Below are positions 51,026 to 61,188 of a stretch of DNA of 64,000 nt, piece by piece (positions within the stretch are counted from its first letter, which is position 1; each line of letters opens with the position of its first letter). The stretch lies in IMG/VR virus record IMGVR_UViG_3300042868_004707, positions 32,001 to 96,000 of that record. The stretch is one strand, 5' to 3'. Made by a program: the position numbers and the translations under genes. The notes under the pieces were generated by a model. It was not told where the DNA came from and made no database searches. It was given only the letters and a program-made list of their open reading frames with translations. The stretch is from a virus.

Positions 51026-51114
51026 TCAAACAAATTAAAAGCATGTGATAAGAATAGATTAATATAACTAGGTTAATTAACTTATTTGGGGAAAGCGTCA
51101 CATGCTTTTTTTAT

Positions 51115-51217
51115 TCCAGAGTGGCGAAATTGGTAGACGCAAGAAGTAAGCAATAAATGGGTTAGTTATACCTGCGAAGCTTCAATAACTGTACAGGTTC
51201 AAGTCCTGTCTTTGGAA
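51115..51217 (+). ncRNA. tRNA-Leu-like RNA with non-canonical anticodon domain
   Basis: Acceptor TCCAGAG/CTTTGGA, D arm GCG-AAATTGGTAGA-CGC, T arm ACAGG-TTCAAGT-CCTGT, A73; about 50-nt central insert with no standard anticodon arm. Confidence 0.75.
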
Positions 51218-58133: not shown

Positions 58134-58134
58134 T

Positions 58135-58165
58135 TTGTTTTATTAATCCCTGTGATGTATATTTG
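58135..58165 (+). promoter_or_regulatory. Canonical Bacteroidota promoter for the ncRNA/tmRNA cluster
   Basis: TTG-N20-TATATTTG, overlapping hairpin ATCCCTG...CAGGGAT (58146-58172). Confidence 0.7.
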
Positions 58166-58222
58166 CAGGGATAAATAGCTAAGCTGTGTAAAGCGTCAGA
58201 ACTGATAATCTGTTAGAAGCTA

Positions 58223-58329
58223 AGTCAGGTGGCGGAATTGGTATCGCACTCCACTTAACTGGAAAGTATTGTTTCGACACAATTAATCAGGTGAAAGGCA
58301 CCATACAGGTTCAAATCCTGTCCTGACTA
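58223..58329 (+). ncRNA. Second tRNA-Leu-like RNA with non-canonical central domain
   Basis: Acceptor AGTCAGG/CCTGACT, D arm GCG-GAATTGGTAT-CGC, T arm ACAGG-TTCAAAT-CCTGT, A73; about 56-nt central insert. Confidence 0.75.
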
Positions 58330-58477: not shown

Positions 58478-59063
58478 AACCTACTGTAAAAATAATGGGG
58501 CTAACAGGTTTTGACAGGTTACCAGTAATTAATACAATCAGCCAGAGAGATAACTGTAAACTAAGATGAATATAATTAAATGGCAAAAACACAAACAGTG
58601 TAGTATCTCAAGGAGACAACGCACAAATCGTAGCTAACATGACTGTAGTACATAACATCTTAAATGGTGGTATTAAAGTTAAATCAAATGACATTATTGA
58701 ATTTGAATTAGCAGCCTAAATTAAAGATTTCTCTGTTAGATTAAACAGAGTGGTGGTTTCTCGATTGTTTATCAGTCGATCCTAGTTGTATGATACTCCA
58801 ACTTTAAAACCGTATCAAAAAAGCTGTATAAATTGTATTTTTGAAAATAATTTTGGACGAGGGTTTGGAAATTGGACCCATTACATAGGAATATGTAATT
58901 AAAAATTGCTTGAATTGCTGGAACGCTAAGTTACACCTGCGAGGGTAATATGCCAATCAGCAGCCAAGCTCACTGGAAGAAGTGAGAAGGTTCAGAGACT
59001 AGGGACACTACGGTGAGCCCACAGTAAGCAACATCTAGAACAGATGATGATATAGTCCGATCC

Positions 59064-59483
59064 CTACAGAAATGTAGGAAGAAAGAATAGTCTCTCGTAG
59101 GCTAACTTTCTTGTAACTTGTTTGTCTGTGTATTTACCATTACGAATGGTAACTGCATCATGGTATTTTAAGACTGTATTTATACGATGTAACTTTTTAG
59201 GATGATGAGAATCCAGAAGTCTACAAAGTTTCAAACATTCTTGATTACTATTACAAGATAAAGAATAACCAATATTATGGTTTTTTTTTCTAGAAGGTTT
59301 TTTTGACATATAAGTTTTAATACTATGTTCATCTAACAAATATTTTTGAATCTCTTCAAGAATTGTTATATAACAGTTAGTAAAATCTATTTTGATGCAT
59401 TTATAAGTATCATTTTTAGAACTTTTACTCATAGTAATTGAACCATCAGCATCAAAAAAGCCTGAAATGTATTGTAGTGTCAT
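59064..59483 (-). CDS. Single-motif LAGLIDADG homing endonuclease, antisense inside the intron
   Basis: YISGFFDADGSI, IDFTN...ILEEIQ; 139 aa. Confidence 0.88.
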   Translation of the reverse strand: MTLQYISGFFDADGSITMSKSSKNDTYKCIKIDFTNCYITILEEIQKYLLDEHSIKTYMSKKPSRKKNHNIGYSLSCNSNQECLKLCRLLDSHHPKKLHRINTVLKYHDAVTIRNGKYTDKQVTRKLAYERLFFLPTFL

Positions 59484-59506
59484 AGTGATTATGTTTTAGA
59501 TATGGT

Positions 59507-59538
59507 GTAAATCTACAACATGTCCTAGACATATGCAA
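59507..59538 (-). promoter_or_regulatory. Intron-internal antisense promoter for the LAGLIDADG gene
   Basis: TTG-N20-TAGATTTAC, 24 nt upstream of the ATG. Confidence 0.6.
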
Positions 59539-59618
59539 GTAAAGTGACAACAAGTTATTAACAAAATGCAACTCCCTCTAGCTCCACTAGTCTCGCATTG
59601 TAAGACTATTTACCATTT

Positions 59619-59653
59619 TCCCTACACATGTCTCAAGTGTGTAGGGATTTTTT
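59619..59653 (+). terminator. Rho-independent terminator after tmRNA
   Basis: TCCCTACACAT-loop-GTGTGTAGGGA-TTTTTT. Confidence 0.8.
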
Positions 59654-59683
59654 AATTTGTATTAATCCTTAATAATAAATAAA

Positions 59684-60492: not shown

Positions 60493-61188
60493 ATGAAAAA
60501 CATACACATATTACCAACACCAAAAGATTTTGAAGTTTGGAAAGATATTATTGGATATGAAGGATTATATCAAGTAAATGAGTATGGCAATGTAAAAAGC
60601 CTGTCAAGAACAATTACAAAAGGTAATATTACTTATGTAACTAAAGATAGGATTTTGAAGCAATCTGTAGATTCTGTAGGTTATCCTTATGTAAATTTAT
60701 CAGACTATAAAAAACAAAAGACATTTAGAGTACATCAATTAGTTGCTGTAGCTTTTCTAAATCATACTCCTGATAAACATAAGGGATTAGTTATAGACCA
60801 CATTGATGGGAATAAACTAAACAATATGACTACTAATCTTCAGTTGATTACTAACAAGAAAAACACAAGTAAAGATAGAAAAAACAAAACTTCTAAATAC
60901 ACAGGTGTATCTTTGCATAAACAAAGTAATAAATGGTTAGCTCAATTTAAAGAGAATGGTAGAGTTAAATACTTAGGTATTTTTAAAACTGAAGAAGAAG
61001 CAAGAGATGCTTATAATACTTCACAAGAACAAGACAAGAATAAGTATAGTGAGGAAGAAGTTTATGATATTGTACAAAAAGCAATAGAAGAAAATAGCAG
61101 TAAACAACTTCACTTCTTTGATGGAGGATATTCGAATCCTGTTTATAGTAATTTAAAAATATGGTTTGAAAAATTTAAAAAGAAATAA
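60493..61188 (+). CDS. NUMOD4-HNH-AP2 endonuclease, chimeric termini
   Basis: EVWKDIIGYEGLYQV, VHQLVA, IDHIDGNKLNN...NL, SKYTGVS...YLG.F.TEEEA. Confidence 0.88.
   Translation: MKNIHILPTPKDFEVWKDIIGYEGLYQVNEYGNVKSLSRTITKGNITYVTKDRILKQSVDSVGYPYVNLSDYKKQKTFRVHQLVAVAFLNHTPDKHKGLVIDHIDGNKLNNMTTNLQLITNKKNTSKDRKNKTSKYTGVSLHKQSNKWLAQFKENGRVKYLGIFKTEEEARDAYNTSQEQDKNKYSEEEVYDIVQKAIEENSSKQLHFFDGGYSNPVYSNLKIWFEKFKKK

Follow-up and report, generated by a model that had tools for sequence, protein, structure and literature searches.

The RNA gene that is the subject of this work lies in a 64-kb stretch of phage DNA (the window), which corresponds to bases 32001-96000 of a complete contig of 115,249 bp with terminal repeats. 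The contig has a GC content of approximately 30% and is a distant relative of Flavobacterium phages. The features described next, as far as the terminator-like hairpin at 59619-59657, are on the plus strand unless stated otherwise. The region opens with a promoter-like motif of the Bacteroidota type at 58134-58165, consisting of TTTG, 20 nt and then TATATTTG, and this motif overlaps the hairpin that ends the upstream gene. A match to TANNTTTG is found at 58158, and both promoter-like boxes are invariant in four aligned relatives. Taken alone, the motif occurs in the window at chance frequency and we can therefore only infer that it functions as a promoter. It is followed by a conserved leader (58166-58222), by the tRNA-like element that we call copy 2 (58223-58329, 107 nt), by a spacer of 166 nt that is found only in this phage (58330-58495) and by a phage tmRNA gene (58496-59586) that has a G3-U70 acceptor and a T loop split by a group I intron. 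The intron core is at 58855-59079 (Intron_gpI, 95.3 bits), and a LAGLIDADG gene identified by Pfam hits occupies 59064-59483 on the minus strand; intron-less relatives match the Rfam tmRNA model. The first terminator-like hairpin and T run past the promoter-like motif is at 59619-59657. Genes of the homing-endonuclease type flank the stable-RNA region, namely a gene at 60493-61188 with HNH, NUMOD4 and AP2 assignments and the LAGLIDADG gene within the intron.

The leader is near-identical in the window and in three relatives (loci L065, L066 and L068), with or without a tRNA-like element after it. It contains the sequence AAAGCGTCA, which occurs just twice in the 64-kb window (0.08 expected), at 51092-51100 and at 58190-58198, in both cases on the plus strand. 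These sites are 14 nt upstream of a similar element that we call copy 1 and 24 nt upstream of copy 2, respectively, and the sequence is also present in L066 and L068; it may be a common promoter, leader or processing signal. A comparison of the relatives showed that in L065 the leader abuts the tmRNA directly, with a short segment of 32 nt and no frame element. The 166-nt spacer is missing at the same site in L065, L066 and L068 and matches no Rfam family; it may be a further small RNA. Given the shared strand, the invariant promoter-like motif, the lack of a terminator-like site before 59619 and the position of the leader at the tmRNA in L065, it is plausible, and we infer, that copy 2 is co-transcribed with the intron-split tmRNA. 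Its position within the leader of the tmRNA transcript, together with the location of other elements of this kind at gene junctions or between tRNAs, is what would be expected of a cis-acting processing element similar to the t-elements of plant mitochondria, one that recruits RNase P and RNase Z to cleave the transcript and thereby mature or stabilise the neighbouring tmRNA or mRNAs. We regard this as improbable: the close relative L065 lacks the element although its leader and tmRNA correspond to those of the window, the tmRNA possesses an RNase P site of its own, a homologue of copy 2 (at L136) stands alone with its own terminator, and the nucleotide-level conservation of the centre of the element, described below, would be left without an explanation. 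The independent terminator at L136 also indicates that linkage to tmRNA is not a trait of the family.

The structure of copy 2 is supported by the Rfam tRNA model, by minimum-free-energy (MFE) folding and by covariation. Its acceptor stem pairs 58223-58229 with 58322-58328 (AGTCAGG/CCTGACT, seven of seven pairs being Watson-Crick) and is followed by a discriminator A at 58329 (A73); the D arm is at 58232-58247 and the T arm at 58305-58321. CCA is not encoded, and the same is true of genuine phage tRNA genes in the neighbourhood. The D region is 1 nt shorter than that of the family majority and the variable region is bulky. Copy 2 scores 46.3 bits against Rfam RF00005 (E value 1.1e-6 for the 64-kb window; gathering threshold 29) and matches no other Rfam family, the tmRNA and intron models included. 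Just three matches to the tRNA model are present in the whole genome, a normal tRNA-Met and the over-long copies 1 and 2, and with default settings ARAGORN calls the tRNA-Met and neither of the copies. Copy 1 (51115-51217, plus strand; Rfam tRNA model, 35.3 bits) has the same D and T arms around a centre of 51 nt and an acceptor, TCCAGAG/CTTTGGA, that is fully paired with one G-U. An earlier note made from the DNA sequence had described the two elements as sharing their arms, and both do read GTGGCG[A/G]AATTGGTA and TACAGGTTCAA[A/G]TCCTGTC; it was also correct in stating that the acceptor of copy 2 differs from that of copy 1 yet is perfectly paired, and that the two centres are unrelated. The centre of copy 1 is found again, with 87.5% identity, in another frame that adjoins a tmRNA (L071 and L072).

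When folded without constraints, copy 2 adopts the tRNA frame together with three internal hairpins, UCCA-CUUAAC-UGGA, AUUGU-UUCGAC-ACAAU and GGUG-AAAGG-CACC. Hairpin 1 (58249-58264) is in the position of the anticodon arm and has a 5-pair stem, in which the top pair is a C-A mismatch in the window, and a 6-nt loop, CUUAAC. The payload core (58268-58302) is in the position of the variable arm and consists of hairpin 2, the linker UAAUCA and hairpin 3. Folding energy is a weak indicator alone: relative to shuffled sequences, the complete element has a z of -1.66 and its centre a z of -0.57. Two true homologues of copy 2 were found, one from IMG/VR and one from a metagenome collection: L080:6148-6257, when every payload was compared by local BLAST with every retrieved locus, and L136:4625-4731 (minus strand), by a metagenome scan. 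Homology among the three runs from base 1 to just past the discriminator, and the flanks are unrelated. Another candidate homologue, L137, was rejected as a chance 20-mer without the frame. In the three-way alignment (A4) the frame and the three hairpins are 97.8% paired and six pairs are doubly changed, a result reached by none of 500 shuffles; the covariation is that of three sequences only (window, L080 and L136). The double changes are distributed over the acceptor (one), the D stem (one), the T stem (one), hairpin 2 (one) and hairpin 1 (two), with an additional wobble change in hairpin 2. Judged by this alignment, the frame and its three internal hairpins are maintained by compensatory changes. 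Two alternative folds of the centre had been noted previously, and although both can be drawn, they did not fare equally: the TCCA-CTTAAC-TGGA arm is backed by covariation, while in the helix that only the long-stem fold contains, pairing drops to 75% across the homologues and covariation is absent, so the long stem was rejected.

Hairpins 2 and 3 and the linkers that surround them are near-invariant across the three homologues and their unrelated flanks. The loop of hairpin 1 varies whereas hairpins 2 and 3 are retained, and within the centre it is this double hairpin, placed where a variable arm would be, that is under selection. On this comparison the centre of copy 2 is a discrete module, kept down to its loops and linkers in phages with unrelated flanking sequences. 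In L136 the hairpin 1 loop, CCUUU, is perfectly complementary to the hairpin 3 loop, AAAGG, and only three pairs can form in the window and in L080; a loop-loop contact between hairpins 1 and 3 is possible but is not consistently supported. Copy 2 is a real RNA gene that is under selection.

Hairpin 1 occupies the place where a tRNA would carry its anticodon. Its loop is CUUAAC (6 nt) in the window, CUUAAAUA (8 nt) in L080 and CCUUUA (6 nt) in L136, so that the homologues agree neither in loop length nor in loop sequence and no anticodon is conserved. In copy 2 the variable region is 39 nt long and contains two hairpins, not a single long arm. The true tRNA-Leu genes on contigs that carry elements of this kind have different acceptor stems and anticodon loops of the usual 7 nt. 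Copy 2 is thus not a standard tRNA-Leu(UAA), an identity that the earlier note had named as one of two findings that would overturn its interpretation. A more permissive possibility is that it is an aberrant working tRNA, such as a frameshift-promoting or suppressor tRNA-Leu, with an anticodon loop of 6 or 8 nt. The 5-bp stem at the anticodon position fits this idea, as does UAA in the loops of the window and of L080, the latter loop resembling that of tRNA-Leu(UAA) with one additional base. We nevertheless consider it very improbable, given the disagreement among the three loops, the lack of UAA in L136, the mismatched top pair of the stem in the window, the many family members without any anticodon-like loop and the lack of an ARAGORN call. 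An intron-containing tRNA was also considered and rejected. When introns are allowed, ARAGORN assigns copy 2 to Asp, copy 1 to Arg and 44 members to scattered isotypes, and this inconsistency means that the intron reading fails; in addition, a group I intron would not fit into so short a centre, and the intron models are unmatched.

The two copies belong to a much larger group. When IMG/VR was scanned for D-arm and T-arm motifs separated by an over-long gap, 56 loci were obtained, and a second scan, which looked for the AGTCAGG frame and a short gap, gave 46. All of these loci were then searched under relaxed criteria, which yielded 128 elements (99 of them unique) of 71-161 nt on about 100 viral contigs, with centres that fall into 78 unrelated clusters. 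The family with conserved arms and a variable centre that had been predicted from just two copies, and whose absence would have been the other refuting finding, is therefore borne out by these searches. Because the members were collected by frame patterns, there is some circularity in the observation that their D and T arms are conserved. U48, which is present in 95% of members, and A73, which is present in 88%, were not imposed by the search patterns. The acceptor AGTCAGG/CCTGACT is found in 66 of the 99 unique members, and the remainder have at least 12 different acceptor sequences, every one of them paired. Copy 2 carries the full frame set: AGUCAGG/CCUGACU, the D arm GGCGGAAUUGGUA, the T arm ACAGGUUCAAAUCCUGU, U48, A73 and a non-tRNA centre. 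The centres of the family have a mean folding z of -0.65; in some members the centre is a plain hairpin of 6-7 bp, giving a total length of 71-72 nt. The elements share a strand with phage tRNA clusters or adjoin tmRNA, some of them being located at gene junctions or between tRNAs, and up to four elements with different payloads are found at one locus in one phage (L019). At six or more otherwise unrelated loci (L049, L087, L056, L117, L112 and L032) a hairpin, TTGACAGC-NN-GGAAAGAC-NN-GC-AACAT, is present directly before the frame, within 30 nt upstream.

The family is specific to phages. The 21-nt 5' frame was detected in only six contigs among 185,579 bacterial and archaeal species genomes, all of them contigs of metagenome-assembled genomes (MAGs) and mostly in Bacteroidota bins, and a blastn search with copy 2 found the frame in none of 50,697 records of cultured phages. 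Flavobacterium phage FpV4 has a tmRNA and lacks the frame element. Unannotated D-arm matches in phages of Erythrobacter, Moraxella and Pseudomonas proved to be ordinary tRNA-Leu genes. In a cultured jumbo phage, the Ralstonia phage phiRSL1 (L138; AB366653.2, at about 189500), we observed an unannotated stretch in which an acceptor and a D arm of the tRNA-Leu type accompany an anticodon-like hairpin. ARAGORN makes no call there, and the stretch may represent a further tRNA-like RNA. In full-text literature searches we met with no account of a family that combines one constant frame with swappable centres. Copy 2 is best placed in the little-known class of phage tRNA-like stable RNAs and belongs to a large phage family that, as far as these searches show, is undescribed.

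The centres are exchanged between frames and between phages. At the site of copy 2, the protein encoded by the neighbouring gene is 76-87% identical among the relatives and the leader is near-identical; after this leader the window has copy 2 and its unique spacer, and L068 combines that frame with a centre unrelated to the one in copy 2. In L066 (5440-5715) an unrelated insert of about 240 nt is found exactly where the window and L068 have their tRNA-like elements, so that the tmRNA leader has the appearance of a hotspot for cassette insertion. At the site of copy 1 the acceptor TCCAGAG is constant, and the window, L065, L066 and L068 each have a different centre. L020, L022/L050 and L052 have a common upstream leader and three different centres, and a single centre can be found in different acceptor frames, as in L018/L066 and L024/L030. 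Many pairs of elements are 96-100% identical while their flanks align at the aligner's baseline for unrelated sequences (74.5 +/- 3%). The proposal, first made from the two copies in the window, that the payload is swappable is upheld by all three patterns: different centres at the same locus, the same centre with different acceptors, and identical elements in flanks that cannot be aligned. Swaps at fixed loci and identical elements in unrelated surroundings indicate that the payloads are discrete, conserved modules that move and are not drifting filler. This mobility, the presence or absence of the element at one site among close relatives and the homing endonuclease genes nearby might also describe a decaying tRNA-Leu pseudogene, or a recombination cassette that acts at the DNA level without an RNA function. 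Such a reading has very little chance of being correct, because the six compensatory pair changes preserve RNA helices, members with 100% identity persist in unrelated flanks, the orientation is always that of the neighbouring tRNA or tmRNA genes, and all 12 acceptor variants remain paired.

The constant part of the element is also of interest for what it may recruit. The determinants recognised by bacterial leucyl-tRNA synthetase (LeuRS) are A73, the A15-U48 Levitt pair, G18G19, U8-A14, G18-U55 and G19-C56 (PMC9976931 section 12; PMC2377443). [quoted passage not shown] Copy 2 has every listed determinant (A73, U8-A14, A15-U48, G18G19 and U55/C56). As these are all outside the anticodon and variable arms, the copy 2 RNA is probably bound, and perhaps charged, by the LeuRS of the host, as far as its sequence allows this to be predicted; leucylation could fail, given the slightly shortened D region, the bulky variable region and the orientation requirement found in A. 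aeolicus. The phage genome encodes neither a CCA-adding enzyme nor a class Ia (LeuRS-type) synthetase, and no conserved protein family is found beside the elements, the top neighbours being terminase, ThyX and an RNase H-like protein. In the absence of such phage enzymes and of a recurring neighbour protein, the RNA must rely on the machinery of the host.

These observations suggest a pathway in which the copy 2 RNA would be the first product of a stable-RNA transcript that runs into the intron-split tmRNA. The faithfulness of the tRNA frame and the lack of corresponding phage enzymes point to host RNase P as the nuclease that would cut the 5' end and to a host 3' nuclease and the host CCA-adding enzyme as the activities that would finish the 3' end. 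The frame may have been kept because it enters tRNA processing and is recognised by LeuRS whatever fills its lower half, and it would give the RNA both stability and access to tRNA pathways. The effector would then be the payload, which in copy 2 is the invariant double hairpin and its linkers; it would bind a partner, with the partner differing according to the type of payload. The explanation that we favour, and to which we attach moderate confidence, is that copy 2 specifies a non-decoding RNA built on the frame of a leucine tRNA, processed as a tRNA would be, probably bound by host LeuRS and carrying an exchangeable payload as its effector, and that it belongs to a large family specific to phages.

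We searched for targets of the payload at several levels. The longest complementarity between the centre of copy 2 and the phage genome is 12 nt, which is at the level of chance. It had been proposed that the inserts be searched for complementarity to host RNAs; across 151 Flavobacteriaceae genomes this search produced a chance-level scatter with no recurrent site. Four frame-carrying MAGs contained no antisense or mimic target for the payload, and its predicted duplexes with the leader, spacer, tmRNA, intron and tRNA-Met had z values of -0.41 to +0.79. Among the payload types no k-mer common to them rose clearly above multiple-testing noise; CTTAA is present in 13 of 77 types (5.2 expected) and GAAAG is mildly enriched. 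The negative searches of the phage genome, the Flavobacteriaceae and the neighbouring RNAs would be accommodated if the frame itself were active, mimicking or titrating the factors that handle tRNA-Leu (LeuRS, EF-Tu, RNase P, the CCA enzyme or a tRNA-sensing defence), and if the centre were merely something other than an anticodon arm that can be cleaved or decoded, and diversified for that reason. A frame that, AGUCAGG included, is far more conserved than pairing by itself needs (66 of 99 unique members) and the members whose centre is a mere hairpin of 6-7 bp are consistent with this alternative. We think it unlikely, because the conservation of payloads in unrelated contexts extends to individual nucleotides, in loops and linkers as well, and because the several payloads in one phage (as many as four) would be needless if the frame alone acted.

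The closest known relative of copy 2 is RNA1 of phage T5 (AY543070.1, 30501-30644), whose annotation reads 'tRNA-like stable RNA with unknown functions'; T5 RNA2 is more loosely related. RNA1 resembles copy 2 in its D arm, which is of the tRNA-Leu type (GCCGGAATTGGTAGACGG in RNA1), in possessing a T arm and a paired acceptor, and in its centre, which is enlarged to about 85 nt and is not an anticodon arm. It is on the strand of the T5 cluster of tRNAs and stable RNAs, just as copy 2 adjoins a tmRNA and its relatives are located in tRNA clusters. The two differ in their acceptor and T-stem sequences, and RNA1 scores 24 bits with the Rfam tRNA model, below the threshold. Their centres have no sequence similarity (blastn of copy 2 against the 50,697 phage records gave no T5-like match). 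Furthermore, the centre of RNA1 is inherited vertically, whereas those of the copy 2 family are swapped between phages, and the host phylum is different. RNA1 is present at full length, with 75-100% identity, in 487 T5-like records from phages of Escherichia, Salmonella and Klebsiella, and nearly all of these are without annotation.

Two classes of cellular RNA provide further points of reference. With canonical class II tRNA-Leu, copy 2 has in common the acceptor stem, the D and T arms, A73, U8-A14, A15-U48 and G18G19; it departs from that class in its 6-nt loop, its 39-nt variable region with two hairpins, its first pair (A1-U72) and its failure to be called by ARAGORN. Like tmRNA (RF00023), it has a tRNA-like frame in which the lower half has been replaced by other RNA, and the two are encoded side by side in this phage. 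Unlike tmRNA, copy 2 has a full D arm, has U3-A70 in place of G3-U70 and so lacks alanine identity, has neither a tag reading frame nor pseudoknots, and is an RNA of 107 nt with a centre of 56 nt. There is also a parallel in biotechnology. Ponchon and Dardel reportedly engineered a 'tRNA scaffold' for recombinant RNA, in which the anticodon arm gives way to a foreign RNA and the cell processes and stabilises the product. That scaffold is man-made, whereas the copy 2 family is natural, phage-borne and diversified.

The existence of this family has a practical consequence, in that it causes mis-annotation of tRNAs in phage genomes: the Rfam model reports its members as tRNAs and ARAGORN gives them random isotypes. 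T5 RNA1, which is conserved in 487 cultured phages, offers a tractable model. The most testable leads are the coincidence with leucine identity and the modular exchange of centres, and because the constant part of the element coincides with the leucine identity set, it is a testable idea that LeuRS charges these RNAs, or at the least binds them, and that they never decode. In a wider and distinctly more tentative proposal, phages of Bacteroidota, and probably others, might possess natural tRNA scaffolds that can be charged with leucine, lack an anticodon and feed into host tRNA processing, LeuRS and EF-Tu, with centres that serve as decoys, aptamers or guides directed against factors of the host or of rival phages and that are traded by recombination in the constant arms. 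If the RNAs are made and processed in the manner outlined here, then the tRNA shape serves phages as a general vehicle in which small functional RNAs are carried. The family would, if this is true, be the natural counterpart of the engineered tRNA scaffold and would represent a large and unexplored pool of phage non-coding effectors.
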